DNA of 64,000 bases from Candidatus Dormiibacterota bacterium (GCA_041691155.1 JBEPVD010000015.1:76-64075); one strand, 5' to 3'. Positions 2,560 through 21,288 are shown, counted from the first letter of the stretch. Numbers and translations: made by a program. The notes: a model not told the origin generated them from the sequence alone.

Positions 2560-2595
2560 CGCGATCGATTGTGGCGACGCGCTAGGCTGCGTGCG

Positions 2596-3423: not shown

Positions 3424-3929
3424 ACAGGGCGCTCGCTGCCGCGCTGGCAACGTCGACGCTGATGCTCGCGGGCTGTGGACTCCAGCAGGATCTGTCGAAG
3501 GTGCCGTTCGGTACCGGGCCGGTTGGGCCTGCCCCACCGATCACCGCGCCGACACTGGAGGGAACGCAGTTCGACTGGTCAGCCACCCGTGGCCATGTGC
3601 TCGTCGTCGATTTCTGGGGCTCCTGGTGTGGGCCCTGCCGTGACGAGCAACCGGACTTGAACAAGCTGGTGACCGACTACGCAACGAAAGGGGTCGTGTT
3701 TGTGGGCGTGGACATGAAAGACAACAATCCGGCCGGAATTGCATACGAGCGCAACCTCACCGTCGCATATCCGAGCGTCAACGACTCGAGTGAAGTCATT
3801 GCGTCGGAGTACAACGTGATCGATCCACCGACGGTGATCATCGTGGACGCGAAAGGCAACATCGTGGATCGGTTTCTCGGCACACTATCTGGCGTGAGCG
3901 CAGACCTCAACCGCCTGCTGCCCTCATGA
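3420..3929 (+). CDS. TlpA/ResA-family thiol-disulfide oxidoreductase lipoprotein
   Basis: The GTG start overlaps the upstream stop (GTGA). Lipobox LMLAGCG. Thioredoxin-fold active site WCGPC. Confidence 0.9.
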   Translation: MNRALAAALATSTLMLAGCGLQQDLSKVPFGTGPVGPAPPITAPTLEGTQFDWSATRGHVLVVDFWGSWCGPCRDEQPDLNKLVTDYATKGVVFVGVDMKDNNPAGIAYERNLTVAYPSVNDSSEVIASEYNVIDPPTVIIVDAKGNIVDRFLGTLSGVSADLNRLLPS

Positions 3930-5140
3930 CCCAGATCACCGTCTACGGGGCGCCCTGGTGCCCGGACTGCAAGCGCGCCAAGAAGTTCCTCGGCGAGCAG
4001 CGGGTCACGTTCGACTGGGTCGACATCGACCAGGACGCCGCGGGCCTCCAGCACGTGGAGGAGTTGCAGAAGGGTGGCCGCACCATCCCGACGATCGTCT
4101 TCGACGGGACCGAGGTGCTCATCGACCCTACCAACGAGGATCTCGCGCGCAAGCTCGGCCTGACGCTCGAGGCCAAGCGTGGCTGCTACGACCTCGCGAT
4201 CATCGGCGGTGGGCCCGCGGGGCTGGCAGCTGCCATCTATGCGGCGCGTGAGGGCATCGACGCCGTCGTTGTCGAGCGCAGCGGACTCGGGGGACAGGCG
4301 GGCGTCACCGAGCGAATCGACAACTACCCGGGCTTTCCCGACGGCGTCGGCGGCGCCGACCTGGCGGAGCGCTTCATCGCCCAGGCGCGGCGGTACGAGG
4401 TCGAACTGCTCAGCGCCGTGAGTGTCGAGAGCATCTCGACCGCAGGGTCGGAGCAGGGTGACGTGTGCCTGAGGTTGGCGAGCGGCCAGGAGATCGAGAC
4501 CCACGCGGCGCTCATCGCGACCGGCTCGTCGTACCGTCGCCTCGGCGTCCCCGGCGAGGACGACCTCATCGGCGCGGGTGTGCATTTCTGTGCCACCTGC
4601 GACGGTCCCTTCTACCGCGGCTCCGAGGAGCTTCTTGTCATCGGTGGCGGTAACTCGGCGCTCGAGGAAGGGCTCTTCCTGCTGAAGTTCGCCGAGCGTA
4701 TCCGCATCGTGCAGCGCGACCCGGAGCTGACCGCATCGCGGTTGTTGCAGGACAAGATCAATCACGACCCGCGTTTCGTCGTCCACTGCAACACCGAGGT
4801 CGTCGAGCTCACCGGCAAGGGCAAGCTCGAATCCGTTCGGATTCGCGACCGCGCCACCGGTGCAGAGGAGGTCATCACTCCGAAGGCCGCCTTCGTGTTC
4901 ATCGGCCAAGACCCCAACACGGCTTTCCTTCGCGGCAGTGTCGATCTCGACGCCCGCGGCTTTGTCGACGACAAGGGCGGTTTCAAGACCTCGATCCCCG
5001 GTGTCTTCGCCGCCGGCGACGTCCGGCGCGGCTCCACGAAGCAGCTCGGATCAGCGGTTGGCGATGGCATCGCGGCGCTGATCGCCATCCGCGAGTACCT
5101 CCAGGAACACCACGAGGTCGCCCCGCACCCCGAGGATTGA
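3926..5140 (+). CDS. trxB: glutaredoxin-like domain fused to thioredoxin-disulfide reductase
   Basis: ATGA overlap with the TlpA gene. The N-terminal ~80 aa are a Grx/NrdH-like fold with a CPDC site. They are followed by TrxR motifs GGGPAG (FAD), CATCDG (redox disulfide), GGGNSA (NADPH) and GDV. Confidence 0.9.
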   Translation: MTQITVYGAPWCPDCKRAKKFLGEQRVTFDWVDIDQDAAGLQHVEELQKGGRTIPTIVFDGTEVLIDPTNEDLARKLGLTLEAKRGCYDLAIIGGGPAGLAAAIYAAREGIDAVVVERSGLGGQAGVTERIDNYPGFPDGVGGADLAERFIAQARRYEVELLSAVSVESISTAGSEQGDVCLRLASGQEIETHAALIATGSSYRRLGVPGEDDLIGAGVHFCATCDGPFYRGSEELLVIGGGNSALEEGLFLLKFAERIRIVQRDPELTASRLLQDKINHDPRFVVHCNTEVVELTGKGKLESVRIRDRATGAEEVITPKAAFVFIGQDPNTAFLRGSVDLDARGFVDDKGGFKTSIPGVFAAGDVRRGSTKQLGSAVGDGIAALIAIREYLQEHHEVAPHPED

Positions 5141-5178
5141 GCCAGGGCTGTGCGTAGTGCTATAGTGCGGCACGCAAT

Positions 5179-5892
5179 ATGGAAATCCGCACGCAACCCA
5201 AGGATATGGTGGCGCTCACGACCCTCGGCCTGCTCAGTGAGCAGCCATGCCACCCGTACGAGATCCAGCGCCTGCTCCGAGAGCGGCACAAGTCGTACGC
5301 GGTCGGCAAGACCCGGACGCTGTACCGCGCCATCGAGGAGCTGGAGGCGGCGGGATTCATCGAGCCGCTCGAGACCAGCCGCGACGGCCGCCGGCCTGAG
5401 CGCACCGTCTACCGCATCACCGCGGAGGGCTGCGAGGAACTCGAGAACTGGCTGGGAGACCTGCTCGCCACCCCGGTGCACGAGGTGCCCGTGTTCAGCG
5501 TCGCGGTGGGACTGCTCGGGTACATCAGCCAGGACCGGGCGGAAGCAGCGCTCGCCAGCCGGCTGGTGGCACTGCAGGCACACAACCTCAGCCTCGATGC
5601 GACCTTGCGTCTCGCCCAGGACGACCTGGGGCTGCCCCGCCTGGTGCTCCTCGAGCTCGAGCATGCCATCGCGCTCGGAACTGCCGAACTGTCCTGGGTA
5701 CGCTCGTTGATCGCCGACATGCAGTCGGGCGCGCTCGTCTGGAACGAAGAGCTCATCCGTGCCCATTTCGAGGCAATGCATGCCGCGGACGCCGAGCGCC
5801 GGAATCGCCACAAAGAGACCCATTTCGCGAAGCTTTTGCACACCGAGGAGCCGGGCGCGCATTCAGCCGGTGCACGGGAGGAGACGCAATGA
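5179..5892 (+). CDS. PadR-family transcriptional regulator
   Basis: N-terminal wHTH (LLSEQPCHPYEIQRLL..RTLYRAIEELEAAGFIE..RTVYRITAEG) plus a long C-terminal dimerisation region. Its stop overlaps the next start (ATGA). Confidence 0.9.
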   Translation: MEIRTQPKDMVALTTLGLLSEQPCHPYEIQRLLRERHKSYAVGKTRTLYRAIEELEAAGFIEPLETSRDGRRPERTVYRITAEGCEELENWLGDLLATPVHEVPVFSVAVGLLGYISQDRAEAALASRLVALQAHNLSLDATLRLAQDDLGLPRLVLLELEHAIALGTAELSWVRSLIADMQSGALVWNEELIRAHFEAMHAADAERRNRHKETHFAKLLHTEEPGAHSAGAREETQ

Positions 5893-6833
5893 TCGAGACA
5901 CACAATCTGCGACGAACATTCAAGAGCCGCAAGGGGCCTGTGGAGGCGGTCGCCGGGGTGGATCTGGATGTCAAGAAGGGTGAGATCTTCGGCTTCCTCG
6001 GCCCCAACGGCGCCGGCAAGACGACCACGCTCCGGATGCTCTCGACATTGCTCCCACCCACCAGCGGCGAGGCGACGGTCGCCGGCTTCGACCTCCGACG
6101 TGACGCCGCCAAGGTGCGCTACCAGATCGGATACGTGAGCCAGGCAGGCAGCAGCGCCCCGGAGGTACCAGGGAGAACCGAACTGGTGATTCAGGGTCGC
6201 CTCTATGGCATGACCAAGGCGCGAGCGCAGGCGCGCGCTCAGGAGCTCATCGCCTCGCTCGAGCTCGAGGATTGTGCGGACCGGCAGACCAAGACCTACT
6301 CAGGTGGCCAGAAGCGCCGGCTCGACATCGGCGTCGGGTTGATGCACCTGCCTCAACTGCTATTCCTCGACGAGCCCACCACGGGACTCGATCCACAAAG
6401 CCGCGCGCGCATGTGGGACGAGGTGCGCCGGCTGCGCGACACGGGCACGACGGTGTTCCTGACGACGCACTACCTCGAGGAGGCGGACGCTCTCTCCGAC
6501 CGCATCGCGATCATCGACCGCGGCAAGATCGTGGCGCTGGGTACGCCTGACGAGCTGAAGCGGCAGGTCGCGGGCGACGTGGTCGTGGTGGGCACCGACA
6601 ACGCGAGCGATCGCGTGCTCGAGTTGCTGAAGGGACAGCCGTTCGTGCGCGAGGCAACCAGCGGCGACGGCGTGGTGCGCCTCTACGTCGATCGCGGCGA
6701 GACCGCGATGCCGCAGATCATTCGGTCGCTCGACGCCGCTGGCATTCCACTCGCATCCCTGTCACTCAACCGACCCAGTCTCGACGACGTGTTCCTGCGT
6801 CAGACCGGACGATCGCTCCGCGAAGCGGCTTAG
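5889..6833 (+). CDS. ABC transporter ATP-binding protein (DrrA-like)
   Basis: Walker A GPNGAGKTT, signature YSGGQKRRL, Walker B LLFLDEPT, H-loop and a C-terminal DrrA-type domain. Confidence 0.95.
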   Translation: MIETHNLRRTFKSRKGPVEAVAGVDLDVKKGEIFGFLGPNGAGKTTTLRMLSTLLPPTSGEATVAGFDLRRDAAKVRYQIGYVSQAGSSAPEVPGRTELVIQGRLYGMTKARAQARAQELIASLELEDCADRQTKTYSGGQKRRLDIGVGLMHLPQLLFLDEPTTGLDPQSRARMWDEVRRLRDTGTTVFLTTHYLEEADALSDRIAIIDRGKIVALGTPDELKRQVAGDVVVVGTDNASDRVLELLKGQPFVREATSGDGVVRLYVDRGETAMPQIIRSLDAAGIPLASLSLNRPSLDDVFLRQTGRSLREAA

Positions 6834-6845
6834 GAGGGCTACCAC

Positions 6846-7607
6846 ATGAAATTGCTGAAAGACACCTGGCTGATGTTCCAGCGCTATCTCTTTGTGTTTC
6901 TTCGCAACCCGGCGTGGGTCGCGATCGGCGTCATTCAGCCGTTGCTGTACCTGGTGCTCTTCGCACCGCTCTTGAAGTCGCTCGTCAACGTGCAGGGCTT
7001 CCCTGCAGGCGGCGCGTACAACGTATTTGTGCCAGGGTTGCTCATCCAGCTCGGCCTTTTCGGCGCGAGTGGCGTCGGTTTCGGACTCATCGCGGAGTTG
7101 CGCGCCGGTGTCATCGAGCGGTTCCGCGTGACGCCGGTCAGCCGGTTCGCGCTGCTCCTCGGCCGTGCATTGCGCGACATCCTCACGCTGGTCGTGCAGT
7201 CGTTGATCCTGCTGCTGCTCGCGATTCCGTTCGGACTGAAGCCGACGTTCATCGGTGTGGTGATCATGCTCGGACTGGTCGCGTTGATCGGTCTCGGTAT
7301 GTCGTCACTGGCGTACGCTGCCGCCCTCGCGCTGAAGAGCGAGGACTCCTACGCTCCACTCATCTTCACGCTGTCGCTACCGCTCCTGCTCCTGAGCGGT
7401 GTGCTGTTGCCGTTGAACCTCGCACCGCAATGGTTGCAGGACATCGGGAAGGCAAATCCGCTCTCCTACGCCGTCAACGCCGCGCGCGATCTCTTCAACG
7501 GCAAGGGTGCCGACTCAGCGGTCTTCGAAGGGCTTGCCATCATGGCTGTGCTGGCTGTGGTGGGGGTCGTGATCGGCGCGCGCCGGTTCAGCCGGGCGAT
7601 CGCCTGA
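6846..7607 (+). CDS. ABC-2 type transporter permease (DrrB-like)
   Basis: 253-aa, six-helix hydrophobic protein directly after the ATPase. An AGGAGGG Shine-Dalgarno sits upstream of the ATG. Confidence 0.9.
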   Translation: MKLLKDTWLMFQRYLFVFLRNPAWVAIGVIQPLLYLVLFAPLLKSLVNVQGFPAGGAYNVFVPGLLIQLGLFGASGVGFGLIAELRAGVIERFRVTPVSRFALLLGRALRDILTLVVQSLILLLLAIPFGLKPTFIGVVIMLGLVALIGLGMSSLAYAAALALKSEDSYAPLIFTLSLPLLLLSGVLLPLNLAPQWLQDIGKANPLSYAVNAARDLFNGKGADSAVFEGLAIMAVLAVVGVVIGARRFSRAIA

Positions 7608-7616
7608 GCCGCGCCC

Positions 7617-8006
7617 TCAGCTCTTGAGAGCGGGAGCGTTCTCAAAGCAGGAGCGGACCACCGCGCCAAGGCCTGGGAGACTGAAAGGCTTGGTGATCAG
7701 GTGGTTCGCTCCGGCGAGCCGGGCGCGCTCCACATCTGCGTCTGCCGAAAGCGAGGTGAACACGAGCACCGGCATCGAATGCGTCTCCGGCTTTGCGCGG
7801 ATGCTTCTGCAGACCTCGATACCGTCAACCCCCGGCATCATGACGTCGAGAATCGCCAGATCGAACTGCTCCGTCTCGAGCACGGACAGCGCTTCGGTGC
7901 CGTCCTGTACCTCTCTGACTTCGAATCCTTCCATGCTGAGATACAGCCCGACGACGTGCAGCAGGCGCGGTTCGTCGTCAGCGAGAAGGATGCGCTGCTG
8001 GGTCAA
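7617..8006 (-). CDS. stand-alone CheY-like response regulator receiver protein
   Basis: Receiver motifs ILLADDEP, DLAILDVMMPGVDG and ITKPF. I favour the TTG start at 8006, which gives MTQQRILLADDE and has GGAGG 9 nt upstream. The longer ATG options (8162, 8240) add sequence whose third-position GC is visibly lower than in real genes here. Confidence 0.75.
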   Translation of the reverse strand: MTQQRILLADDEPRLLHVVGLYLSMEGFEVREVQDGTEALSVLETEQFDLAILDVMMPGVDGIEVCRSIRAKPETHSMPVLVFTSLSADADVERARLAGANHLITKPFSLPGLGAVVRSCFENAPALKS

Positions 8007-11675: not shown

Positions 11676-12479
11676 ATGCCGTCAATGACCGATGCGCTCT
11701 TCACTCCCGACAAGGGTCGATTCATGCCCAGCGACCACACGCGTGGGCCCTGGGATCGCGCGGCGATGCACGGTGGGCCCCCGGCGGCGCTGCTGGGCCG
11801 GGCGATGGAAACCCTGGCGACGGACATCCCGATGGCGGTCGTCCGCACCACCGTCGAGATCTTCCGTCCCGTGCCGCTCCGACCCGTCGAGGTCAAGGCA
11901 CGCATCGAGCGCGAAGGCCGGCGCGTCCAGCTGCTGAGCGCGACGCTCACCGACGGCAATACCGAACTCTGCCGCGCGACCGCGTGGCGAATGCGCATCG
12001 CCGACCTCGGCCTGGATGGGACCGAGTCCGAGATGCCGGTTTCCTCACCCGCCGAGTCGACGCCGCACGTGCCCGAAAGCAGCGATCCCGCATTCCATCG
12101 GACCGGGGTCGAGATGCGCTACGCGCATGGGTCTTTCGCTGAGCAGGGTCCGGCCGCAGCGTGGATCCGCCTCGCGATGCCGCTGGTCGCCGGCGAGACG
12201 CCGTCCCCGCTGCAGCGCGCACTCGCCGCAGCCGATTTCGGCAACGGCGTCAGCTCAGCCTTGCCCTGGGGAGAGTTCCGCTTCATCAACACTGACCTGA
12301 CCGTCTACTTGCACCGCGAGCCGGAAGGTGAGTGGGTCTGCCTCGACGCCGCGACGGTTGTGGAGTCGCGGGGTATCGGCCTTGCGCAAAGTCAGCTCTA
12401 CGACGAGCGCGGACCGGTCGGCCGGTCGCTCCAGGCGCTGTTCATCGATCGGGTGACCACCGCACCACCGAGGGTGTGA
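11676..12479 (+). CDS. acyl-CoA thioesterase-family (double hotdog) protein
   Basis: 267-aa ORF. The GPWDRAAMHGGPPAALL region is typical of TesB-like/thioesterase-family proteins. Divergent from the hydrolase operon. Confidence 0.7.
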   Translation: MPSMTDALFTPDKGRFMPSDHTRGPWDRAAMHGGPPAALLGRAMETLATDIPMAVVRTTVEIFRPVPLRPVEVKARIEREGRRVQLLSATLTDGNTELCRATAWRMRIADLGLDGTESEMPVSSPAESTPHVPESSDPAFHRTGVEMRYAHGSFAEQGPAAAWIRLAMPLVAGETPSPLQRALAAADFGNGVSSALPWGEFRFINTDLTVYLHREPEGEWVCLDAATVVESRGIGLAQSQLYDERGPVGRSLQALFIDRVTTAPPRV

Positions 12480-12489
12480 GGCCCGCGGA

Positions 12490-13200
12490 TCAGGCGCCGA
12501 GCAGGCTCTGCACGCGCGGGTCATCGCGGATCGGAGTCAGGTCCGCGTCCTCGAGCGCGAACGGCACGAGGTCCGGGCTCACGCGCAGCGCTTCGCGCAG
12601 CAGCGGCAGGGCATCGTCGGCCCGTCCGTTGCGCCCATAGAAGCAGGCGAGGTTGTAATCGGCGATCACCTTCTCCTCGGGAAAGAGTTCGACACCGATT
12701 TGATACGCCCACAGCGCCACTGCTTCTGCGCCTTCGGGATCCTCATGCTCCCCCGCCCACGAGGACACGTGCTGCGCCACATGCCCGTGCCCGTTGCCGG
12801 GGATGAGGTGCCAGAGCGCCGAACCACCCGGCCGGTCGCGCAGCAGATTTTCCTCGCTGCTCGCGGACACGGCTTCCATCAAGGCCGCGTAACTCGCCGT
12901 CGCCCCGGCACGGACTTCGGCTGCGGACTCACCGCGGTGCGCCTCGTAGATGACCGCGTTGCGCGCGTCCAGGTCGCGATCGTCAACGGGTCCCTCTGGC
13001 TCTTCGCCGCGACCCACAGCATCAAGGATGTGTGCCGCGTGTTCGCGCCACGCGTTCAGGTGCGCGACGTTATCCTTCGCGGTCCACTGTCCCGCCACGG
13101 GCGTGGGCGTGTCATCGCACAATGCAAGCAGCGCCTCTTCCTTGGCGCGCGCCCGATCGAGCGATTCGAGCAGCCGGTCGCGCAGCGATGCTTCGGTCAC
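12490..13200 (-). CDS. DinB-family protein with C-terminal TPR-like tail
   Basis: The GTG start at 13200 overlaps the helicase stop (GTGA). DinB-type His positions (WTAKDNVAHLNAWREH, HGHVAQH). The C-terminus YNLACFYGRNGRADDALPLLREAL..DLTPIRDDPRV is TPR-like. The N-terminal part of ORF 12490..13527 is rejected. Confidence 0.7.
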   Translation of the reverse strand: MTEASLRDRLLESLDRARAKEEALLALCDDTPTPVAGQWTAKDNVAHLNAWREHAAHILDAVGRGEEPEGPVDDRDLDARNAVIYEAHRGESAAEVRAGATASYAALMEAVSASSEENLLRDRPGGSALWHLIPGNGHGHVAQHVSSWAGEHEDPEGAEAVALWAYQIGVELFPEEKVIADYNLACFYGRNGRADDALPLLREALRVSPDLVPFALEDADLTPIRDDPRVQSLLGA

Positions 13201-16200
13201 GCGGGCAGCATAACGGCGCTCACCCCAGCGTCGCTCCACGCCGCCGCCATCTCGACGAAACGGCAGAGCGCATTGACCAGTCGCATCTGCTCGGGGGTGT
13301 GACAGCGAGCGCGGAGTAACTCCGGCGAGCACACCAGCACTGAGAGACCGCGCGCTCGCGATACCGCGACGTTGAGCCGGTTCAGGCTGAACAGGAACTC
13401 GAGGTTTCGCGGCAGGTCCTCGACGCTCGAGGTCGCCATCGAAAAGATGCTGACCGCAGCCTCCTGTCCCTGAAAACGGTCGACGGTGCCGACTCGCGCG
13501 CCGGCTGGCAACGCTTCGCCCAGACATGCCACCTGCGCGTTGTACGGCGCGACGACGACAATGTCGTCCAGCGTGAGTCGGCGCTCAATGCCCGCGCTGT
13601 CTCGCCACATGGAACTGGTCAGCTGATCGACGATCTCGCCCACCCGCGATGCCTCTGCGTCGGAGTGCACACGGTCGCCCGCGTGTACAACCGGCGCGGT
13701 GCGGAGCCCTGTCAGCAACGTCCTGTGTTCAAGCACGGCCTGGGTGGCGCACTCCGGTTCCGAGCCGAGCTTGCTCCCATAGAACGACCGCGAGACGAAA
13801 GCGCACACGTCCGGGTGCATGCGCCATGTGCGGTCGAGGAGCACGCCGCGATCGGGCGCGATGATCACGCCCCCACCGAGGAGATGGTCGAGGGCCGACA
13901 CACCCACGCCGGTCGGGTGGCTTCCCTGCAGCGGCTGCGCAAGCTGGCGGGGATCACCGACGAGGACAATGTGCTGCCCGGCACGTGAGACTGCGAGCAC
14001 GTCGGCCAGCGACATCTGGCCGGCCTCGTCGACGATGAGGGTGTCGAAACGGCCCTCGACGCCCGGGCGCGCGAAATGCCACGAGGTCGCGCCCACGACG
14101 TCGACGGCCGCTTCATCAAGCGCGGCTTCGACGTCGCCGTTCGTCCTCGCCATGTGAATGAACTCGGTGCCCTCGCGCGATGACCGCAGGTGGAGCATCC
14201 GCGGCATCCAGCCATGCGCCGGCGCGAGCTCCTCGACTTTGGCGAGCAGCGTCCGTATGGCGCTGTGCGAAAGCGCCGTGACACCGATCGGCCCGCGGCC
14301 CTCCTTGAGCAAGGCGAGGATCGCCTCAGCGGCAGTGTGAGTCTTCCCGGCACCGGGCGGGCCCTGGATCGGCAGACAGCCCTCATCCAACGAAAGGATG
14401 AGCCGGATCGCCGCTGCGCTCGCCGATTCATCCGGTTCTCGAGCGGCACAGACGACCCCGTTCAGGAGCCGGGGTGGCACGCGAACGAGGAGGTCTCTCG
14501 CGGGCCGCCAATCGCCCACCGCGTCGATGCCGTTGGCCGCCACCCAACGGCCGAGGTCGAGCAGCGATTCCTGCTGCGCGTTGGTCGGAATCGGCCGTGC
14601 CGGGATCAAGAACTGCACCATTCCCAAGCGCGCACTGGCTGCGGAGCGCGACAGGGTGATCTCCCCGCGGCCCGAGTCGATCTCGATGACCTCCCCGACG
14701 GCAGCCGGGCCACCGCCCCTGGACTTCAACTGCGGATCGAGCGGATGGTCACCGGCCGCGATGTGGTGCTCCTGCGGTTCGAACCGGTAGCGCTCGATGG
14801 CGCGGCCTTCCTCGTCGTGGGCACCGATCAACGTCAGCGGCCCGAGCGCGTAGGTGTCCCGCTCGAGCTCCTCGCGCGTCATCGCCAGCTGGTCGAAGTG
14901 ACGCCACCATCCCACCTTGCCTTCGCGCCGGTGAAACGAGAGCAGCGGCGCGAGCAGACCGGTCGCGCGCTGCGCGTCGGTCCGCTCCTCCGGGTCCTCT
15001 GGTAATGAAGTCAGCAGCGCGTCGGCGACGGCCTGCGTGGCAGCGATCTTCGCGTCCTGCGTCTCCGATGTCTCGTCGATCGTCGGCGGTCGTTCGATCG
15101 GCGCACCACGCAGTCGCTCCTCCTCGACACGACGTGCTTCGAGCCAGTTGCGCAGCAGGCGGGTCGACTCGCAGTCACGCTCGTTGTACAAGGCGATCTC
15201 GTCGAGGAGCTCGCTATTACCGCTACCGCCGTCCTCGCGGCTGACCAGCCAGCGCTCGTACATCACCATGCTGCCTGCGGCATCGGCGATCGACTCCGCG
15301 CGCGCCGGCATGTACAGCCGCTCCACTTTCTTGAGCGAATACGAGTCGGTGGAGAGGCGTATCCCCTGGCGAACCACGCGATAGAGATCGACGAGGATCT
15401 CGTTGCGCAGCAACCGATCCACCTCCTCCTCACGGGTGCCGTGACGGCTCATCAGCCGTCGCACCGCCGTCTTCTCGTAGGCGGCGTAGTGGTAAATGTG
15501 CATATCGGGAAAACGGTTGAGCTTTGCGATGGCAAAATCGACGAAATCCTCGAATGCCTGCCGTTCTCCGGCATCGTCGTGCCCCCACCAGGCGTGGTAC
15601 TCACCGTTGGGCTCGACCGCCCCGAAGAGATACTCGAGCGGTGTGTCACGCGCAAGTCCGTCGCCTTCCATGTCGAAAAAGATGTCCCCCGCCGACGGCG
15701 ACGGCAGCGAGCAGAGCCCCAGTCCAACCTCCCAGGCGTCGAGCAGTTCGTGGCGCGGCGAGCCGTCCGGGTAGGGGCCCTCATGCTGGAGCGCTGCCTG
15801 CGCGCGCAACTCGCGAAACGTTGCGGGGTCCATGTTCCCCGGTGGGTCTCGGTCGGGCGACTGCTGCGCCAGGGCCGTCATGGTCGGAACGCCGTACGAC
15901 CGCAGGGCGACCGCCTGTCCGGATCGCATACGCGCGACCTGGGACAGATGATCGTCGTTGCGCCGCTGCGCGACGCAGCGTGCGTTATACCCGCAGGTGT
16001 TGCAGTGGTCGACGGGGTTGGGATAAGTGTCACCGACCTCGACGAGCATCGTCGTCTCGAAATCGCATTTCACAGTCGCGTGGTACGCGGAGAATTCGTC
16101 CAGGCGGTACGAATGCTCAACGCCGTCGCCGAGGATGACGTGCATCATGGCGGGAGCGGTTCCCTGGAGCCGGTCGAGATGCGCCGAGTACTCGCACAGT

Positions 16201-16664
16201 TGCAGCAACGCTTCGGAGCGCACACGACGGGCCAGCTTGGCGTCGGCGGCCTCGTAGGAGAACGGCCAGCGAGCACTCGGCGTCTCGACCCGCAGCAGGA
16301 AGTCCGCCCGGCCCATCCATCGGCCGTCAAAGAACGTGGGCTGATAGATGACGTCGTAGCCGGCGCTCATCGCCTGGACGGTGTCGGCTTCCAGCGCGTG
16401 CAGCTCGGATGCCGAGCTCGCGAATCGATCCTGTTCGTCGTCGAAGGCCTTGATATGCAGACCGCGCGCTCGCAGAGCCTCGAGGTGGCCCTGTTCGTGC
16501 CCGGCGCCGAGCCGGGAGAGCACTTCGCTGAGCGCCGACTCATCGCGCTCGATGACCTCACCGCCGGCGGCCCGCCGCTTCAGTGTCACCAGGTGACCGC
16601 AGGCGAGAAAGTCGCAGAGGTCGGTCGCCGTGTAGACGGGCCTGCCGTCCTTGAGGTAGCGCAT
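13197..16664 (-). CDS. three-module nuclease-helicase: Cas4/RecB-like PD-(D/E)XK nuclease with Cys cluster, RNase-H-like exonuclease fold (TM0106-family) and SF1 DNA2/UPF1-type helicase
   Basis: 1155 aa. The N-terminus has DLCDFLACGH, EAADAKL and CNTCGYNARC (an Fe-S style Cys cluster). The middle has IFFDMEGD, YHYAAYE and YNERDC (DEDD/RNase-H-like). The C-terminus has GPPGAGKTH (Walker A), IVDEAGQ, LVGDPRQL, VDRFQGQE and LNVAVSRAR (SF1 AAA_11/AAA_12 motifs). Confidence 0.9.
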   Translation of the reverse strand: MRYLKDGRPVYTATDLCDFLACGHLVTLKRRAAGGEVIERDESALSEVLSRLGAGHEQGHLEALRARGLHIKAFDDEQDRFASSASELHALEADTVQAMSAGYDVIYQPTFFDGRWMGRADFLLRVETPSARWPFSYEAADAKLARRVRSEALLQLCEYSAHLDRLQGTAPAMMHVILGDGVEHSYRLDEFSAYHATVKCDFETTMLVEVGDTYPNPVDHCNTCGYNARCVAQRRNDDHLSQVARMRSGQAVALRSYGVPTMTALAQQSPDRDPPGNMDPATFRELRAQAALQHEGPYPDGSPRHELLDAWEVGLGLCSLPSPSAGDIFFDMEGDGLARDTPLEYLFGAVEPNGEYHAWWGHDDAGERQAFEDFVDFAIAKLNRFPDMHIYHYAAYEKTAVRRLMSRHGTREEEVDRLLRNEILVDLYRVVRQGIRLSTDSYSLKKVERLYMPARAESIADAAGSMVMYERWLVSREDGGSGNSELLDEIALYNERDCESTRLLRNWLEARRVEEERLRGAPIERPPTIDETSETQDAKIAATQAVADALLTSLPEDPEERTDAQRATGLLAPLLSFHRREGKVGWWRHFDQLAMTREELERDTYALGPLTLIGAHDEEGRAIERYRFEPQEHHIAAGDHPLDPQLKSRGGGPAAVGEVIEIDSGRGEITLSRSAASARLGMVQFLIPARPIPTNAQQESLLDLGRWVAANGIDAVGDWRPARDLLVRVPPRLLNGVVCAAREPDESASAAAIRLILSLDEGCLPIQGPPGAGKTHTAAEAILALLKEGRGPIGVTALSHSAIRTLLAKVEELAPAHGWMPRMLHLRSSREGTEFIHMARTNGDVEAALDEAAVDVVGATSWHFARPGVEGRFDTLIVDEAGQMSLADVLAVSRAGQHIVLVGDPRQLAQPLQGSHPTGVGVSALDHLLGGGVIIAPDRGVLLDRTWRMHPDVCAFVSRSFYGSKLGSEPECATQAVLEHRTLLTGLRTAPVVHAGDRVHSDAEASRVGEIVDQLTSSMWRDSAGIERRLTLDDIVVVAPYNAQVACLGEALPAGARVGTVDRFQGQEAAVSIFSMATSSVEDLPRNLEFLFSLNRLNVAVSRARGLSVLVCSPELLRARCHTPEQMRLVNALCRFVEMAAAWSDAGVSAVMLPA

Positions 16665-16912
16665 CAGCGCACCATCCTCGCGCGCCGGAGGCCGCGTTCG
16701 CGCGGAAGGGGGAGGCTGAGCTGGCGGCTCGACCGCCGGTCCGTCCGTGCTCGATCGGGTGGCGGGCCGGATGTGCCGGCGAGCCTGGTCGAGCGTGCGG
16801 ATGCGGTTCCGAAGAGGTCGGCTCTCGCGGCCAGGAGCGCCTGAGCGCGCCGGAGATACGAACCCTCCGGCGTCACATCGCTGTCGGCCGGTGTCGTCGC
16901 GGAGGTGGCCAT
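16664..16912 (-). CDS. possible 82-aa Arg-rich small protein upstream of the nuclease-helicase
   Basis: ATG at 16912. Its TGA shares one base with the helicase ATG (TGATG at 16662..16666). Hand-counted third-position GC is about 80 percent in a region with no gene on the other strand. The sequence is low-complexity and I recognise no family. Confidence 0.3.
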   Translation of the reverse strand: MATSATTPADSDVTPEGSYLRRAQALLAARADLFGTASARSTRLAGTSGPPPDRARTDRRSSRQLSLPLPRERGLRRARMVR

Positions 16913-16933
16913 GCCGAGACGATGCGGGGGCAC

Positions 16934-16960
16934 CGCGACAGGTGCCTGTCGCGATAGGGT
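16934..16960 (+). promoter_or_regulatory. perfect 20-bp palindrome (cgcgacagg-tg-cctgtcgcg) abutting a TAGGGT -10 box for a leaderless GNAT-WYL-msrB-recQ transcript
   Basis: The palindrome is at 16934..16953. TAnnnT (tagggt) is at 16955..16960 and ends 6 nt before the ATG at 16967. That spacing is expected for actinobacterial leaderless mRNAs. Confidence 0.45.
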
Positions 16961-16966
16961 GCGCGG

Positions 16967-17491
16967 ATGGCTGTGGAGATCAAAATCCGGCCGGTCCGCG
17001 CCACCGAATACGCCGCCGCCGGCGAGGCGACCGCCCTCGCGTACCAGGAGTTCGCACCGTCGAGATCGCCGGGATGGCGCGCCTACATCGCGAGGATCGC
17101 CGACGTCGCCGCCCGCGTTGACCGGACCACGGTGCTGGTCGTACATGTCGACGGCGTCCTCGCGGGGTCGGCGACGCTGGAACTCGACCAGCGCATGAAT
17201 ACGTCAGCCGTACCACTCGCCGAAGACGAGGCGCACCTCCGCATGCTCGGCGTCCACCCGGACTTTCGTGGACGGGGCGTGGGACGAGCCCTGGTCATCG
17301 CCTGCATCGACCTTGCGCGAGCGCGCGGGAAACACCGGCTGACCCTCGACACGTCCCCGGTGATGCTCGCCGCCCAGCAGATGTACGCGGCGATGGGCTT
17401 CGCCGCAACCGGCGCGTACCGCACCCCGGACGGCGTCGACCTGCTCGGCTACAGGCGCGACCTCGTGTCAGAGGCCTCGACGACTCGCTAG
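16967..17491 (+). CDS. GNAT-family N-acetyltransferase
   Basis: Acetyl-CoA motif LGVHPDFRGRGVGRALV, followed by YAAMGF. Confidence 0.9.
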   Translation: MAVEIKIRPVRATEYAAAGEATALAYQEFAPSRSPGWRAYIARIADVAARVDRTTVLVVHVDGVLAGSATLELDQRMNTSAVPLAEDEAHLRMLGVHPDFRGRGVGRALVIACIDLARARGKHRLTLDTSPVMLAAQQMYAAMGFAATGAYRTPDGVDLLGYRRDLVSEASTTR

Positions 17492-17500
17492 GCTCATCGC

Positions 17501-18499
17501 GTGCCAGGCGACTACGAGAAGGGAGAGAAGGAATACCGCGTCATCAAGCTCTACGCTCGCCTGTGCGAGACGGAGAGGGGCCTGTCGACGCGGCAGCTTG
17601 CCGAAGAGCTGGAGGTCGAACAGCGAACCATCCAGCGCTACGTCGCCACCCTGCGCGACAGCGCCGGCATCGACATCGAGTCCCATGGCGGTCGGTGGCG
17701 CATCGGCAAGCGCAGCCTGCTCCCTCCGCTCCAGCTTGATCAGTACCAGGCGACACTCCTGCTGGTCGCGGTTCGCCTCTTGCAGCAGGTCCGCACCGAG
17801 CAGGATCCCGCCCTCATCGGTGCGCTCGCCCAGCTGTCGCGCGCGCTGAGCGTCCCCATCGTCAGCGAGTACCTCCTGCGCACACTCGCCGCAGCCGAGC
17901 GGCAACCGTCGAACAGCGCGCGCTTGAAGGTCGAGCGCGCGGTCATCGACGGCTTCGTGCATCACCGTGAGGTCGAGGTCCGCTACGTCGACGGCAAGGG
18001 GAACGAAAGCAAGCGCGAGTTGCGCCCGTACTTCATCCAACCGACTGCGGAAGGACGCCACATCTACGTGCTCGCACGTGATTCCGTCTCTCGCGAGGTG
18101 CGCTCCTGGCGTCTCGATCGCATCCGCGACGCCCATGTCCTGCCCACGACGTTCACGGTCCCCGAGGGGTTCGACATCGACGCCGCCCTCGGCGCCTCCT
18201 GGGGCATCTGGCAGGGTCAGGTCGGCGATCGAATCGTGCTGCGCTTTCCCGCCGCGGTTCGCCAGTGGGTGGATGAAAGCCCGTGGCCGGCGAAGACAAG
18301 GCGGAAGGACCTGCCCGACGGCAGCATCGAGGTCCGGCTGGAGGTGGCCGGCGAGGCCGAGATGCGACCCTGGCTCCTGCGCTGGGGCGAAAACGTCGAG
18401 GTCGTGGGGCCGGAGTCGCTGCGGACCTTCATGGCGGAGACCCATGCGGCGGCGGCGGCACTGTACGCGTCGAATCACCGTGATCGGGGTAGAAAATAG
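17501..18499 (+). CDS. WYL-domain transcriptional regulator (HTH-WYL-WCX architecture)
   Basis: GTG start 9 nt after the GNAT stop. N-terminal HTH (LSTRQLAEELEVEQRTIQRYVATLR). Central WYL-type segment (VEVRYVDGKGNESKRELRPYFI..HIYVLARD..REVRSWRLDRI). C-terminal extension. Confidence 0.85.
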   Translation: MPGDYEKGEKEYRVIKLYARLCETERGLSTRQLAEELEVEQRTIQRYVATLRDSAGIDIESHGGRWRIGKRSLLPPLQLDQYQATLLLVAVRLLQQVRTEQDPALIGALAQLSRALSVPIVSEYLLRTLAAAERQPSNSARLKVERAVIDGFVHHREVEVRYVDGKGNESKRELRPYFIQPTAEGRHIYVLARDSVSREVRSWRLDRIRDAHVLPTTFTVPEGFDIDAALGASWGIWQGQVGDRIVLRFPAAVRQWVDESPWPAKTRRKDLPDGSIEVRLEVAGEAEMRPWLLRWGENVEVVGPESLRTFMAETHAAAAALYASNHRDRGRK

Positions 18500-18503
18500 C
18501 CAT

Positions 18504-18905
18504 ATGGACGACAAGATCACCCTCACCGACGACGAATGGCGTCAGAAGCTCACCCCTGAGCAGTACAACGTGCTCCGCAAGGCGAGCACCGAGCGCGCCT
18601 TCACCGGCCAGTACGTGCATGTGGACGACAAGGGCGTCTACCACTGCGCAGGCTGTGGCGCCGAGCTCTTCAACTCCGACACCAAGTTCGACTCCGGCAC
18701 CGGCTGGCCGAGCTTCTACGAGCCGATGTTCGAAGGTGCGGTCGAGAAGCACCGCGACTGGAGCATGGGTCTCCCGCGCACGGAGATTCGCTGCGCGAAG
18801 TGCGGCGGCCACCTGGGGCACGTGTTCAACGACGGACCGCAGCCGACCGGGGAGCGCTACTGCATGAACTCCTGCGCCCTCAAGCTGGAAAAGACCCCCA
18901 GCTGA
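18504..18905 (+). CDS. msrB: peptide-methionine (R)-S-oxide reductase
   Basis: ATG at 18504. Zinc CxxC pairs (CAGCG, CAKCG) and the active-site region GHLGHVFNDGP..RYCMNS. Confidence 0.95.
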   Translation: MDDKITLTDDEWRQKLTPEQYNVLRKASTERAFTGQYVHVDDKGVYHCAGCGAELFNSDTKFDSGTGWPSFYEPMFEGAVEKHRDWSMGLPRTEIRCAKCGGHLGHVFNDGPQPTGERYCMNSCALKLEKTPS

Positions 18906-20950
18906 TCACGCAGCTGGAGCCCTCGGCCCGGGCTCGCGCTGTACTCGAACAGACCTTCGGCTTCGCCGACTTTCGCCCCGGACAGGCGGATGTCATTGCC
19001 GCGGCCGAGGCGCAGTCGGACGTGTTGTTCGTTGCCCCGACCGGCTCCGGCAAGAGCATCGCGTACTGGGTCCCCGGCGTTGTGGGTGGTGGGCTGACGC
19101 TGGTCGTCTCACCGCTCATCGCCCTGATGGTCGATCAGGTGGCCCGTCTCAATGCGCTGGGTATCCCGGCGGCGTGCCTGCACAGTCAGGTGAGCGCCGC
19201 GACCCGGGCCGAGGCGATGCGAGCGGCACTCGCGGGCGAGTTGCGCTTCCTGTACCTCGCGCCGGAGCGGATCGGCGCGGCCGGTGTGCTCGACAGCCTC
19301 GGCAAGCTCACCGTCGCGCGCTTCGTCGTTGACGAGGCGCATTGCATCTCGAGCTGGGGACACGACTTCCGGCCCGACTACCGTCGCCTCGGGGACGCCA
19401 TTGCGGCGTGTGGCCGGCCTCCTGTCGGAGCGTTCACCGCGACAGCAACCCCGCGCGTTCGGCAGGACATCGCCGCGAGCCTTGGGCTCCGAGCGCCGGT
19501 TGAGCGCGTCAGCGGATTCGTGCGCGAGAACCTGACCATGTCCGTCGTCCGCTGCCGTGGTGTGGCGGACAAGCGCAGCGCACTTGCGGGACTGGTTCGA
19601 CGCGACAGCGGTCGCGCGCTCATCTACTGCGGCAGCCGGAAGACGACGGAGGCCGTGACCGAGACGCTGTCGCAGGCAGGCGTGTCGGTCGCCGCGTATC
19701 ACGGTGCGCTCGACGGCGATACGCGTCAGCGCGTCTATGAGCGCTATGCGTCGGGTGATCTGCACGTGATCGCCGCCACATCGGCGTTCGGCATGGGCGT
19801 CGACTTTCCGGATATCCGTCGCGTCATCCACCACGATTTCCCTGGAAGCATCGAGGAGTATTACCAGCAGGCAGGGCGCGCGGGACGCGACGGCGAACCG
19901 TCCGAATGCATCCTGCTCTACAGCGCCGCGGATCGACAGCTGCAGGAGTTCTTCATCGAGCAGGCCTTCCCGGAGCGCGACACGGTTCGCTCGGTGTATC
20001 GAGAATTGTTGCGCGAGGGCAGCGATGCGATCGATGACTGGGACCGTCGCGGTGTCGCCGCCAACGCAGCGCGCGCCGCACTCGACCTGCTTCGTCGCGC
20101 CGACGTGATCCAACCCGACGGCAGCATCCGGCGCCTGACTGGTGCGCCAGTCGACTTCGACGAGCAGGCATTGCTCAAGGCCAACGCCTACGCGCGCGTC
20201 AACCAAGTGATGGACTATGCGGGCTTTCGGGGGTGCCGGCATGCGCGCATTGCCGATTACTTCGGTGAGGAAGGTGTTGCGCGCACCTGCCACGCCTGCG
20301 ATAACTGTCTCGACGAAAACCGCTCGCCTCTCGTGGTCGTCGACGCGGCGGATGTCGGGGCGGTGCTTGCCTGCGTGGCGCGATTCGATGGACACCTCGG
20401 CGGCGTCCGGCTCGCGTCAATCCTTCGCGGTACCACCGACACCTGGACGTCGTCGCGTCAGTGGGTTACGGAGTTGGCGTTTTTCGGCGCACTGCGAGCC
20501 TGGGAACTGGAGCGCATTCGCGACCTGCTCGAGCGACTCGTCGAAGTCGGCTGCGTCAGCCGCGGGCACGGGGAGAAGCCGACACTCGGGATCACCGTAC
20601 GCGGCAGCGCAGTGCTTCGCGGTGACGATGACGTCCAAGTGGACATTGCCGCGCAAACACGACGGCCGCAATCATCAAGTCGCGCCAAGAGCGCCGGCGG
20701 GAGCGCGCTCGACGCCGATACCAGTGACGAAGTCCGCGCCCGATTCGAGGCGCTGCGGGGCTGGCGACTCGAGATCGCGCGCAACGCTCAATTGCCGCCG
20801 TATGTCGTATTCCACGACCGCACTCTCGCCGAGATCGCGCATCGACGACCGGCTTCGATGGCGGCGCTGGGAACGATCTCTGGGGTGGGCCCGGCAAAGC
20901 TGGAGCGCTATGGGGAGTTGGTTCTCACGGTCCTTCGCGACCGCGACTGA
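18800..20950 (+). CDS. recQ: ATP-dependent DNA helicase RecQ
   Basis: FRPGQ Q-motif, APTGSGKS, VVDEAHCISSWGHDFRPDY, a zinc-binding CHACDNC region, and RQC and HRDC domains. The only canonical start (ATG 18800) overlaps msrB by 106 nt. A CTG at 18902 in a CTGA overlap gives an E. coli-like N-terminus (see findings). Confidence 0.9.
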   Translation: MRRPPGARVQRRTAADRGALLHELLRPQAGKDPQLITQLEPSARARAVLEQTFGFADFRPGQADVIAAAEAQSDVLFVAPTGSGKSIAYWVPGVVGGGLTLVVSPLIALMVDQVARLNALGIPAACLHSQVSAATRAEAMRAALAGELRFLYLAPERIGAAGVLDSLGKLTVARFVVDEAHCISSWGHDFRPDYRRLGDAIAACGRPPVGAFTATATPRVRQDIAASLGLRAPVERVSGFVRENLTMSVVRCRGVADKRSALAGLVRRDSGRALIYCGSRKTTEAVTETLSQAGVSVAAYHGALDGDTRQRVYERYASGDLHVIAATSAFGMGVDFPDIRRVIHHDFPGSIEEYYQQAGRAGRDGEPSECILLYSAADRQLQEFFIEQAFPERDTVRSVYRELLREGSDAIDDWDRRGVAANAARAALDLLRRADVIQPDGSIRRLTGAPVDFDEQALLKANAYARVNQVMDYAGFRGCRHARIADYFGEEGVARTCHACDNCLDENRSPLVVVDAADVGAVLACVARFDGHLGGVRLASILRGTTDTWTSSRQWVTELAFFGALRAWELERIRDLLERLVEVGCVSRGHGEKPTLGITVRGSAVLRGDDDVQVDIAAQTRRPQSSSRAKSAGGSALDADTSDEVRARFEALRGWRLEIARNAQLPPYVVFHDRTLAEIAHRRPASMAALGTISGVGPAKLERYGELVLTVLRDRD

Positions 20951-21093
20951 TGGGTTAGCCAGACCCTCGGGACTACCTCCAAAAATCATGAAAACGAACT
21001 GCTACCCGCACTAGCGCCGTAAGCCGCAAGGACTCGCGAGCATCGGCAAAAGCGAATCGCCCCCGACATCCTCCGTTGGGTGGCTGAGGACTG

Positions 21094-21288
21094 CTACTGG
21101 CCCGCCCCCCCACAAGCTGGAGCTTCCGCGGGCTCGCATGATTGCGATCCGCCGATCGTGATGTTCTCGGTAGGCCTGGGGGTGGGGGCGTTGTGAGTTC
21201 CCGGATGGCTGAGAAAGATCACGACCATCAGAGCAGCCAGCGCGACGACGGCGATCGCAGCCGCGATCCGTGCCTTCACGGTCCTCAC
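21094..21288 (-). CDS. possible 64-aa membrane-anchored small protein
   Basis: GTG start, one N-terminal TM helix (IAAAIAVVALAALMVVIFL) and a Cys-containing tail. Coding statistics are weak and there is no clear SD. Confidence 0.25.
   Translation of the reverse strand: MRTVKARIAAAIAVVALAALMVVIFLSHPGTHNAPTPRPTENITIGGSQSCEPAEAPACGGAGQ

Follow-up and report, generated by a model that had tools for sequence, protein, structure and literature searches.

A divergent gene cluster at positions 12490-20950 of a 64,000-nucleotide stretch of DNA from an uncultured soil bacterium, Candidatus Dormiibacterota bacterium (GCA_041691155.1 JBEPVD010000015.1:76-64075; the whole stretch is called the window below) is organized around a gene for a WYL-domain transcription factor. 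The balance of the evidence tips modestly toward a local stress switch of the WYL class, gated by single-stranded DNA (ssDNA) in the manner of SiwR, PafBC and DriD, which would drive a small protein bearing a sliding-clamp-type motif together with a DNA-end-processing enzyme. What can be read directly is the gene content of the locus, the catalytic residues of its enzymes, the conservation of its operator, the fixed spacing from operator to start codon and the patterns of synteny among relatives. The features are listed here with coordinates counted from the first letter of the window.

12490..13200, minus strand: DinB-TPR gene, 236 amino acids, with a DUF1706/DinB_2 fold and a TPR end-of-group domain at the C-terminus; GTG start and nuclease-helicase stop overlap in GTGA.
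13197..16664, minus strand: nuclease-helicase gene, 1155 amino acids, with TIGR03491, RNase_H_2 and AAA_11/AAA_12 superfamily 1 (SF1) helicase matches.
16664..16912, minus strand: small open reading frame (ORF) of 82 amino acids, of no family; its stop overlaps the nuclease-helicase ATG (TGATG).
16706..16723, minus strand: codons for QLSLPL (Q64-L69), by sequence match a candidate beta-sliding-clamp-binding motif.
16919..16924, minus strand: leftward -10-like hexamer CATCGT, separated by 10 nt from the operator and by 6 nt from the small-ORF ATG that follows; a putative promoter element.
16935..16952, no strand: predicted operator, the 18-bp inverted repeat GCGACAG-gtgc-CTGTCGC, predicted binding site of the WYL dimer.
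16955..16960, plus strand: rightward -10-like hexamer TAGGGT, 2 nt past the 18-mer operator, with 6 nt left to the GNAT ATG; function likewise putative.
16967..17491, plus strand: GNAT acetyltransferase gene, 174 amino acids, first gene of the rightward operon.
17501..18499, plus strand: winged helix-turn-helix (wHTH)-WYL-WCX transcription factor gene, 332 amino acids, with HTH_11, WYL and WCX profile matches.
18504..18905, plus strand: methionine-R-sulfoxide reductase gene MsrB, 133 amino acids (TIGR00357, 184 bits against a cut-off of 113).
18800..20950, plus strand: RecQ-family helicase gene (Zn-binding, RQC and HRDC domains); start uncertain, GTG 18800 or ATC 18905.

The seven ORFs lie where the initial annotation had placed them, its domain calls are each backed by profile searches (Pfam and NCBIfam), and the junctions it reported are confirmed: TGATG between small ORF and nuclease-helicase, GTGA between nuclease-helicase and DinB-TPR, gaps of 9 nt (GNAT-WYL) and 4 nt (WYL-MsrB) in the rightward string, and outward start codons 54 bp apart (16913-16966). 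Because stop and start codons overlap, the small ORF, nuclease-helicase and DinB-TPR genes are taken to form one transcription unit. The Actinomycetota setting in which the locus had first been viewed is wrong, since the relatives of the WYL protein come almost entirely from metagenome-assembled genomes (MAGs) of Candidatus Dormibacterota, the source of the window itself (G+C content 65-69%). The comparison set consisted of 78 loci (WYL identity 44-85%) from a WYL alignment scan with one genome per species, all of them from Dormibacterota- or Chloroflexota-type MAGs of which a few were deposited under other names, and was brought to 85 by loci found through protein look-up. The presence or absence of neighbouring genes in these relatives was tabulated by tblastn, and homology and the depositors' calls were preferred to a codon-usage model that missed MsrB and mis-called some distant loci.

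The regulator carries HTH_11 (residues 13-65, E 1e-8), WYL (147-213, E 3e-10) and WCX (244-319, E 2e-15) domains, and this domain order, together with the basic residues of the ligand pocket and a palindrome at the promoter beside its own gene, places it in the wHTH-WYL-WCX class. Residues R201, R204, D206 and R207 are invariant across 32 homologues, and this arginine segment of the WYL domain aligns with the WRLDR of DriD. R204 and R207 carry the same numbers as the two arginines of SiwR that are required for ssDNA binding and activation (PMC10693628). The closest solved relative is DriD (8tp8, E 1.5e-21), followed by PafC/PafBC (E 3e-12 to 9e-9); no solved chain deposited as CapW or BrxR matches the WYL profile at E<=0.01. 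By analogy with these relatives the protein would bind DNA, would take ssDNA as its ligand and would probably activate rather than repress transcription.

Between the two gene strings lies what had been described as a perfect 20-bp palindrome abutting a -10 box. The hexamer TAGGGT, which fits TAnnnT, does abut the repeat, which is itself not a perfect 20-mer and instead has the form 9+2+9, CGCGACAGG-tg-CCTGTCGCG at 16934-16953, with 9-nt arms and two unpaired central bases. The core CGACAG-N4-CTGTCG is the sole perfect site in the 64-kb window; matches with two mismatches number 8, against 8.5 expected by chance, and such degenerate copies therefore provide no evidence for a wider regulon and were rejected as members of one. 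The half-sites GCGACAG and CTGTCGC are kept beside the WYL gene in most of the 85 loci, over WYL identities of 44-100%, while the 4-nt spacer varies. This conservation next to the WYL gene suggests that GCGACAG-N4-CTGTCGC is the operator of the WYL protein, and it upholds the original view of the locus as organized around the regulator; with half-sites constant and the centre varying, a protein-binding site fits better than an RNA hairpin.

The position of the site relative to the regulator gene shifts across the relatives. Where the gene order is that of the window (WYL identity 55-100%) it lies ~540-600 bp before the WYL gene and ahead of GNAT; for a sister clade (54-58%) the distance upstream of that gene is 0.04-2 kb; and in the most distant loci it sits directly past the WYL stop codon, ahead of the next gene. 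It remains near the WYL gene even where the neighbouring genes differ. In L026 and L028 an insertion of ~1.4 kb, ~2.0 kb upstream of the WYL gene, splits the two operons, and the operator stays with the small ORF while the rightward TAnnnT hexamer is lost. The exact operator is absent from L087 and L088. A related repeat with different spacing in L087 (GACAGC-tag-GCTGTC) and GACA-N5-TGTC in an intergenic region of Rhizobium etli were considered as forms of the same operator and rejected as too loose. Distant loci of Dormibacterota type (WYL identity 44-54%) carry up to 3-5 operator copies each, and there the same operator precedes ARPP-1-domain proteins, one of them full-length (E 1e-78) and several of shorter, divergent forms of 250-290 amino acids, as well as a 419-residue partner without a family and, in L076, an RNase_T/DEDD exonuclease (L046 1497-3148; L076 7611-9929 and 10963-12608; L084 741-1653; L067 11216-13519; L080 3676-4509).

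The gene most tightly tied to the operator is the small ORF, rather than either helicase. An ATG (rarely GTG) 22-23 nt from the 18-mer operator opens a frame of 63-89 codons encoding QLxLP[LIM] in 61 of 86 sources, the motif being present in all 61 operator-linked ORFs by construction of the search and many of the 25 remaining sources being contigs that are too short on that side. The initial annotation had called this ORF only possible; it is a real gene, whose frame is kept without a stop in 59 relatives even though insertions and deletions occur, its length changing in frame only. Stops interrupt the other five frames in 14-50 of these 59 loci. Differences per codon position (0.445, 0.414 and 0.548 for positions 1, 2 and 3) are highest at the third, and G+C fractions of 0.78, 0.63 and 0.83 rank third over first over second. 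The depositors' calls nonetheless omit the gene in four look-up loci with the arrangement of the window (L001, L002, L005 and L006). It is kept in ~14 loci with no nuclease-helicase nearby (for example L007, L047, L049, L055, L056, L059-L061, L068, L025 and L027), and small ORF and operator persist together even where both nuclease-helicase and GNAT are absent. In the sister clade of L007 type the small ORF served by the operator is monocistronic and stands 2 kb away from the WYL gene. L007, which lacks the nuclease-helicase, also has genes for an Lhr helicase (1456 amino acids), after it a fragment of a Fapy/Nei DNA glycosylase, and an MDMPI_N/DinB_2 protein (2091-7770), all 2-8 kb upstream of the WYL gene, with the DinB_2 gene convergent with the operator-driven small ORF.

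Two blocks of the small protein are conserved, Y-x-x-R-A-x-x-L towards the N-terminus and R-x(4)-QLxLPL towards the C-terminus. The first lies in an amphipathic helix (Y19-F34, motif YLRRAQALLAARxxLF), which is followed by a disordered Arg-rich tail. AlphaFold2 gives one confident helix (residues 15-35), with low confidence and no regular secondary structure around the motif, and QLSLPL is therefore placed in a flexible segment. Within this hexapeptide, at residues 64-69, Q64, L65, L67, P68 and L69 are invariant. The clamp-binding motif of Escherichia coli Hda is PAQLSLPLYL, with a dissociation constant of 0.38 uM, and the clamp consensus is QL[SD]LF (PMC11139829). The window protein thus has the same hexapeptide as Hda, and by sequence it has a clamp-binding motif in a disordered segment; binding of the small protein to the beta clamp through QLSLPL is best regarded as a lead and not as a demonstration. 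Hda differs from the small protein in being an AAA+ protein with an N-terminal motif that regulates DnaA, whereas here the motif lies near the C-terminus of 82 residues that have no other domain. The family is a sparse one, with 38 hits among 5.8 billion clustered proteins and 19 among 1.84 billion representatives, and in both searches the hits carried no Pfam domain and no name past 'hypothetical protein'.

At the leftward promoter the layout operator, 10 nt, nAnnnT, 6-7 nt, ATG is found in 61 of the 86 sources, and most loci have in that same place a hexamer whose second base is A and whose sixth is T (CATCGT, CATCCT, CACGAT, TATCTT and GATCAT among others). A conserved nAnnnT hexamer so close to the start codon suggests that the leftward mRNA is leaderless. 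On this placement the operator would span about -40 to -23 of the leftward promoter, with the proximal half-site centred at ~-26; SiwR and PafBC work through an element at -26 by sigma adaptation. On the other side, TAGGGT, or TAnnGT/TATCGT in relatives, lies 0-4 nt past the operator, leaving 6-7 nt to the GNAT start; it is found wherever a gene lies to the right of the operator and is absent where none does. It is a predicted -10 element that may alternatively be a ribosome-binding site. A generic sigma-70 scan of 12300-21200 found no consensus promoter, as is expected for activator-dependent promoters. The geometry leaves activation and repression undecided, and the sequence relatedness of the regulator together with the lack of -35 elements favours activation.

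The second gene of the leftward unit encodes an enzyme with three catalytic centres, all of them intact. It matches TIGR03491, 'TM0106 RecB-like nuclease', with 237.1 bits (cut-off 97.45, residues 12-508), and is made up of an N-terminal 4Fe-4S PD-(D/E)xK nuclease of RecB/Cas4/Dna2 type, a central DEDDy exonuclease (RNase_H_2, residues 328-508) and a C-terminal SF1B helicase (Upf1/Dna2-like) whose closest relatives are Upf1, Sen1, IGHMBP2 and Dna2; Cas4 models match weakly. In an alignment of 24 homologues of 47-75% identity the cysteines of Fe-S type C22, C221, C224 and C230 (C...CX2CX5C), which would hold the predicted metal cluster, are invariant, as are D121, E138, D141, K143, Q155 and Y159 of PD-(D/E)xK and QxxxY, D331, E333, D426, Y493 and D497 of the DEDDy exonuclease, and Walker A G768-T775 (GPPGxGKT) and G903-L908 (GDPxQL) of the helicase; in its DEAGQ motif E880 and A881 are invariant and D879 nearly so. 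The combination of a four-cysteine iron-sulfur PD-(D/E)xK nuclease and an SF1B helicase in one chain recalls Dna2, in a family that also invites comparison with AddB and Cas4 and to which the protein belongs by its TIGR03491 score, whereas the intact DEDDy exonuclease between nuclease and helicase sets it apart from Dna2. The family has more than 4,000 database members at E<=1e-30 and is widespread on plasmids, and the literature search found no characterized member, no paper joining TM0106 with both nuclease and helicase and no description of the TM0106 family paired with a WYL regulator. A clamp motif within the enzyme itself was considered and rejected as not systematic, such peptides being present in two of the homologues examined and lacking in the other 22, the window protein among them. 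The two homologues in question end in clamp-like peptides, QLPLLM at P0172 1161-1166 and QMSMAL at P0217 1154-1159.

Conservation of the gene neighbourhood had been proposed as a check on the locus, and it gives a divided answer: the link between the WYL factor and the nuclease-helicase recurs, and the seven genes do not make up a fixed system, as RecQ, DinB-TPR and GNAT are variable. At WYL identities of at least 73% (42 loci) the nuclease-helicase is present in 37, where it is 72-90% identical to that of the window, and of the others three are contigs that are too short and two, L025 and L027, lack it. All 42 have GNAT, directly upstream of WYL, and MsrB; RecQ is present in 41, and DinB-TPR is found in most, that is, in most of those that also have the nuclease-helicase. 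At 54-64% (33 loci) about 11 keep the nuclease-helicase divergent with GNAT and WYL, RecQ is in the operon in none, DinB-TPR is often absent (as it frequently is at or below 64%), and GNAT is directly upstream of WYL in ~15; the rest of this group lack both nuclease-helicase and GNAT and carry, ahead of WYL, a gene for a DUF1345-like membrane protein. MsrB lies within ~1-5 kb of the WYL gene in most relatives of at least 54% identity, in some cases on the other strand; RecQ belongs to the operon in the clade of the window alone, at 73% and above. Below 52% (10 loci) the nuclease-helicase appears in new positions. In L085/L086 it follows the WYL gene directly and in tandem, and the operator precedes its start codon by ~26 nt; in L046 it is 5.7 kb downstream, again in tandem, with an operator copy of its own; and in L087, a contig of Chloroflexota type, the two genes are in tandem 9 nt apart. 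On the Rhizobium etli plasmid pRsp8C3a a 330-residue WYL protein, 26% identical to that of the window (E 1e-16), is encoded 61 bp from a TM0106 nuclease-helicase gene, in divergent orientation. The link of the nuclease-helicase to WYL factors thus takes four forms and spans at least three phylum-level groups, and because the pairing reappears in several arrangements the WYL factor and the nuclease-helicase are a recurrent module.

The remaining genes of the rightward operon have their own peculiarities. All five RecQ domains are found (DEAD, Helicase_C, Zn-binding, RQC and HRDC), with recQ_fam at 371 bits (cut-off 220) and the RecQ equivalog model at 543, below its cut-off of 640. Where relatives start, at the MsrB stop, no ATG, GTG or TTG is present and ATC (18905) stands instead, giving TGATC in place of a TGATG-type junction; the sole canonical in-frame start is GTG 18800, with a 106-nt overlap with msrB. 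This may reflect a rare ATC start, a long overlap or a recent loss of the start codon, and the overlap of MsrB and RecQ noted originally holds for either start. In several relatives an MsrA (PMSR) gene lies near MsrB and WYL on the opposite strand (L002 14117-14596, L005 11453-11926), so that both Msr types cluster near the regulator. Toxin-antitoxin-type pairs occur a few kb away in L002 (4098-4878, TacA1 and GNAT) and L086 (1904-2454, PhdYeFM and ParE); the window has neither. Housekeeping genes flank the locus and are syntenic in dozens of species, and among close relatives the synteny reaches well past the locus, including MFS, Lactamase_B and ABC transporter genes. Scans for tRNA genes, Rfam families and terminators yielded nothing informative.

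A mechanism can be proposed from these elements. A homodimer of the wHTH-WYL-WCX protein would bind the single operator, from which two promoters without a -35 element, both probably leaderless, point outward. Upon DNA damage or stalled replication ssDNA would bind the WYL domains, by analogy with SiwR, PafBC and DriD, and the ssDNA-bound dimer would switch on the leftward promoter from the proximal half-site at ~-26, while the same site would also modulate the GNAT-WYL-MsrB-RecQ operon of the regulator itself. The leftward transcript would yield a mostly disordered small protein that may dock on the beta sliding clamp through QLSLPL, with the nuclease-helicase and the DinB-fold/TPR protein translationally coupled to it, and the putative task of the products would be to process DNA ends, gaps or flaps at sites marked by the clamp, the small protein either recruiting the enzyme or restraining clients of the clamp. 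Both the clamp binding and the substrate of the nuclease-helicase are presumptive here. The MsrB, RecQ and DinB-fold genes fit a theme of oxidative and genotoxic stress, as in the SiwR regulon. Of the earlier proposal that all seven genes form one ligand-gated regulon, the WYL-centred layout is retained and the list of members is not.

The switch in this mechanism has parallels among characterized WYL systems. The nearest is SiwR (MSMEG_1359) of Mycobacterium smegmatis and the msmeg_1357-56 DinB-superfamily operon (Keller et al., 2023), in which a 19-bp imperfect palindrome lies between -35 and -10, the -26 region is needed, and the divergent DinB-superfamily operon is activated after H2O2 or zeocin (PMC10693628). 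Compared through the domain limits and residue numbers given in that paper, the two are single wHTH-WYL-WCX proteins of ~330 residues with nearly superimposable limits (13-65/146-215/245-320 in SiwR, 13-65/147-213/244-319 here), and the R204/R207 pair that is essential in SiwR is invariant here. Both have an imperfect palindrome of ~19-20 bp between the -35 and -10 positions of a divergent promoter and a DinB-fold gene in the divergent operon, and both appear to be local rather than global regulators connected with oxidative or genotoxic stress. The window differs in phylum and in that its first and most conserved target is the small QLxLPL protein followed by the nuclease-helicase, both missing from the SiwR regulon; the DinB-fold gene is here the third of its operon, encodes a TPR domain as well and is lacking in many relatives in which the operator is kept, and the regulator is co-transcribed with GNAT, MsrB and RecQ.

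PafBC, the master activator of the mycobacterial DNA damage response, is activated by ssDNA and works by sigma adaptation at -26 (PMC11804915). The likeness lies in WYL/WCX sensing of ssDNA and in promoters without a -35 that have an element at -26, to which the leftward proximal half-site at ~-26 would correspond; PafBC is in turn a heterodimer of paralogues at the Pup-proteasome locus with a large regulon, in contrast to the one gene and symmetric operator here, and the similarity is weak. Membership in the PafBC group was rejected, the single WYL gene being flanked by GNAT and MsrB and its operator being symmetric. DriD of Caulobacter crescentus, the closest solved relative, is a homodimeric WYL activator triggered by ssDNA. 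Its principal target is reportedly DidA, a small damage-induced inhibitor of division that is said to be a membrane protein acting on the divisome. The small protein of the window is instead soluble and Arg-rich with a clamp-type motif, and both the operator sequence and the target genes differ from those of the DriD-didA system. CapW and BrxR, repressors of CBASS and BREX, share the wHTH-WYL-WCX architecture, a palindrome overlapping the promoter of adjacent effectors and an ssDNA signal, and relatives of the nuclease-helicase do occur in defence islands; CapW and BrxR are found beside recognized defence systems, whereas none is recognized here. WYL repressors of defence systems sense ssDNA, which relieves repression by factors of CapW type (PMC11662680).

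Several points weigh against a damage-responsive switch of the kind proposed. The operator overlaps the core promoter and would suit repression equally well, as with CapW and BrxR, which ssDNA de-represses; the co-regulation of the two arms is proposed from their geometry only; a single perfect operator was found within the 64-kb window examined; and the clamp reading is drawn from a match of six residues. RecQ, DinB-TPR and GNAT are lineage-specific passengers, the L085/L086 and L087 loci and the plasmids have the nuclease-helicase without the small ORF, and full-length nuclease-helicase homologues of 31-42% identity lie on plasmids beside genes of defence type.

This last point leads to the alternative that survives best, which is unlikely and yet carries real weight: an anti-phage or anti-plasmid defence in which a CapW/BrxR-like repressor is freed by the ssDNA of infection, the nuclease-helicase degrades invading DNA and the small protein blocks replication. 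On R. etli pRsp8C3a (L094 2917-9166) the divergent WYL gene and nuclease-helicase are accompanied by multiubiquitin, ThiF-E1 and DUF6527 genes and a dGTP triphosphohydrolase gene, and on Phenylobacterium pA (L090 624-7357) a nuclease-helicase lies beside multiubiquitin, E2 and E1 genes; clusters of multiubiquitin and ThiF-E1 genes next to the nuclease-helicase on two unrelated alphaproteobacterial plasmids may constitute a composite defence island. On a plasmid of Arthrobacter sp. ERGS1:01 (L093 3689-11285) a homologue stands immediately upstream of a DUF3375/DUF4194/ATP-binding trio, which we take to resemble the Wadjet (JetABC) anti-plasmid system, and a Caballeronia plasmid has DUF2357 near its homologue. 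ARPP-1, AIPR and ResIII genes accompany the WYL/nuclease-helicase pair in L087, the ARPP-1-like proteins and DEDD exonuclease behind the same operator in distant Dormibacterota loci point the same way, and the helicase part matches the PADLOC models MkoA, MkoC and DpdJ. Against all of this, PADLOC-DB 2.0 gives no model over the whole nuclease-helicase, no complete known system and no second component (RecQ matches DpdF and PsyrT, and the WYL protein generic WYL models only). In the clade of the window the gene is vertically inherited, its housekeeping surroundings are stable, and it shares operons with genes for DinB-fold, MsrB and RecQ proteins. Small ORF and operator are retained where it is missing, and by sequence DriD and PafBC are closer to the regulator than is any CapW or BrxR of solved structure. 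A role in stress and repair is favoured because of this inherited housekeeping setting, the MsrB, RecQ and DinB partners, the precedent of SiwR and the clamp motif, a peptide carried by many repair proteins. Under either repair or defence the trigger would be ssDNA.

A smaller regulon, which we consider a good deal less probable than defence, would have the WYL factor control the small ORF and perhaps its own operon, with the helicases, DinB-TPR, MsrB and GNAT as neighbours by descent. The loss of RecQ, DinB-TPR and GNAT in distant relatives, the occurrence of MsrB on the opposite strand, the operator-bearing monocistronic ORF of L007 type and the synteny that extends far outside the locus in close relatives all speak for it. 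It accords poorly with the TGATG and GTGA overlaps that make the small ORF, nuclease-helicase and DinB-TPR one transcription unit in the window, with the operator directly ahead of the nuclease-helicase in L085/L086 and L046 where the small ORF is missing, and with the recurrence of WYL/nuclease-helicase pairs in other phyla. Least credible of all, and in our view very improbable, is that the small ORF is a leader that tunes translation of the nuclease-helicase and that its QLxLPL match is coincidental, since its absence from most source annotations, its low-complexity, Arg-rich sequence and low model confidence, an antisense frame (r0) also open in 45 of 59 loci and a conserved C-terminal RARMVR overlapping the nuclease-helicase ribosome-binding region are set against the 22-23 nt start spacing and QLxLP[LIM] kept in the ~14 loci with no nuclease-helicase downstream, the in-frame length changes and codon-position pattern, and two separate blocks conserved at the amino-acid level.

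The preferred reading therefore remains the local WYL-class switch, and its elements are not equally novel. That the combination had not been described, as the initial annotation put it, is untrue of the switch, for a wHTH-WYL-WCX protein, a promoter palindrome and ssDNA are known together from SiwR, PafBC, DriD and CapW, and true of the effectors: what is new is the small clamp-motif protein and the recurrent pairing of a WYL factor with the TM0106 nuclease-helicase. A more ambitious version, which we put forward tentatively and judge somewhat apter to fail than to hold, sees here the core of a damage response of the Dormibacterota, in which an ssDNA-sensing WYL factor would induce, from a leaderless transcript, a clamp-docking protein of ~80 residues that acts as a checkpoint or recruits the three-activity enzyme to clamps on damaged DNA, and in which the WYL factor and TM0106 enzyme would form a two-gene module crossing phyla (Dormibacterota, Chloroflexota and rhizobial plasmids) in repair or defence.

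WYL regulators are emerging as the main LexA-independent route from ssDNA to transcription, with a handful of targets known, and this locus supplies an operator defined by sequence, a promoter geometry and a set of targets for a phylum that lacks a cultured model. The TM0106 nuclease-helicase merits characterization because it is repeatedly paired with WYL factors. The most conserved element of the locus is an ORF mostly skipped by gene callers, whose product has as its sole recognizable feature a canonical clamp-binding peptide; if the small protein is a true binder of DnaN, it would represent a new type of damage-induced regulator or adaptor of the sliding clamp.

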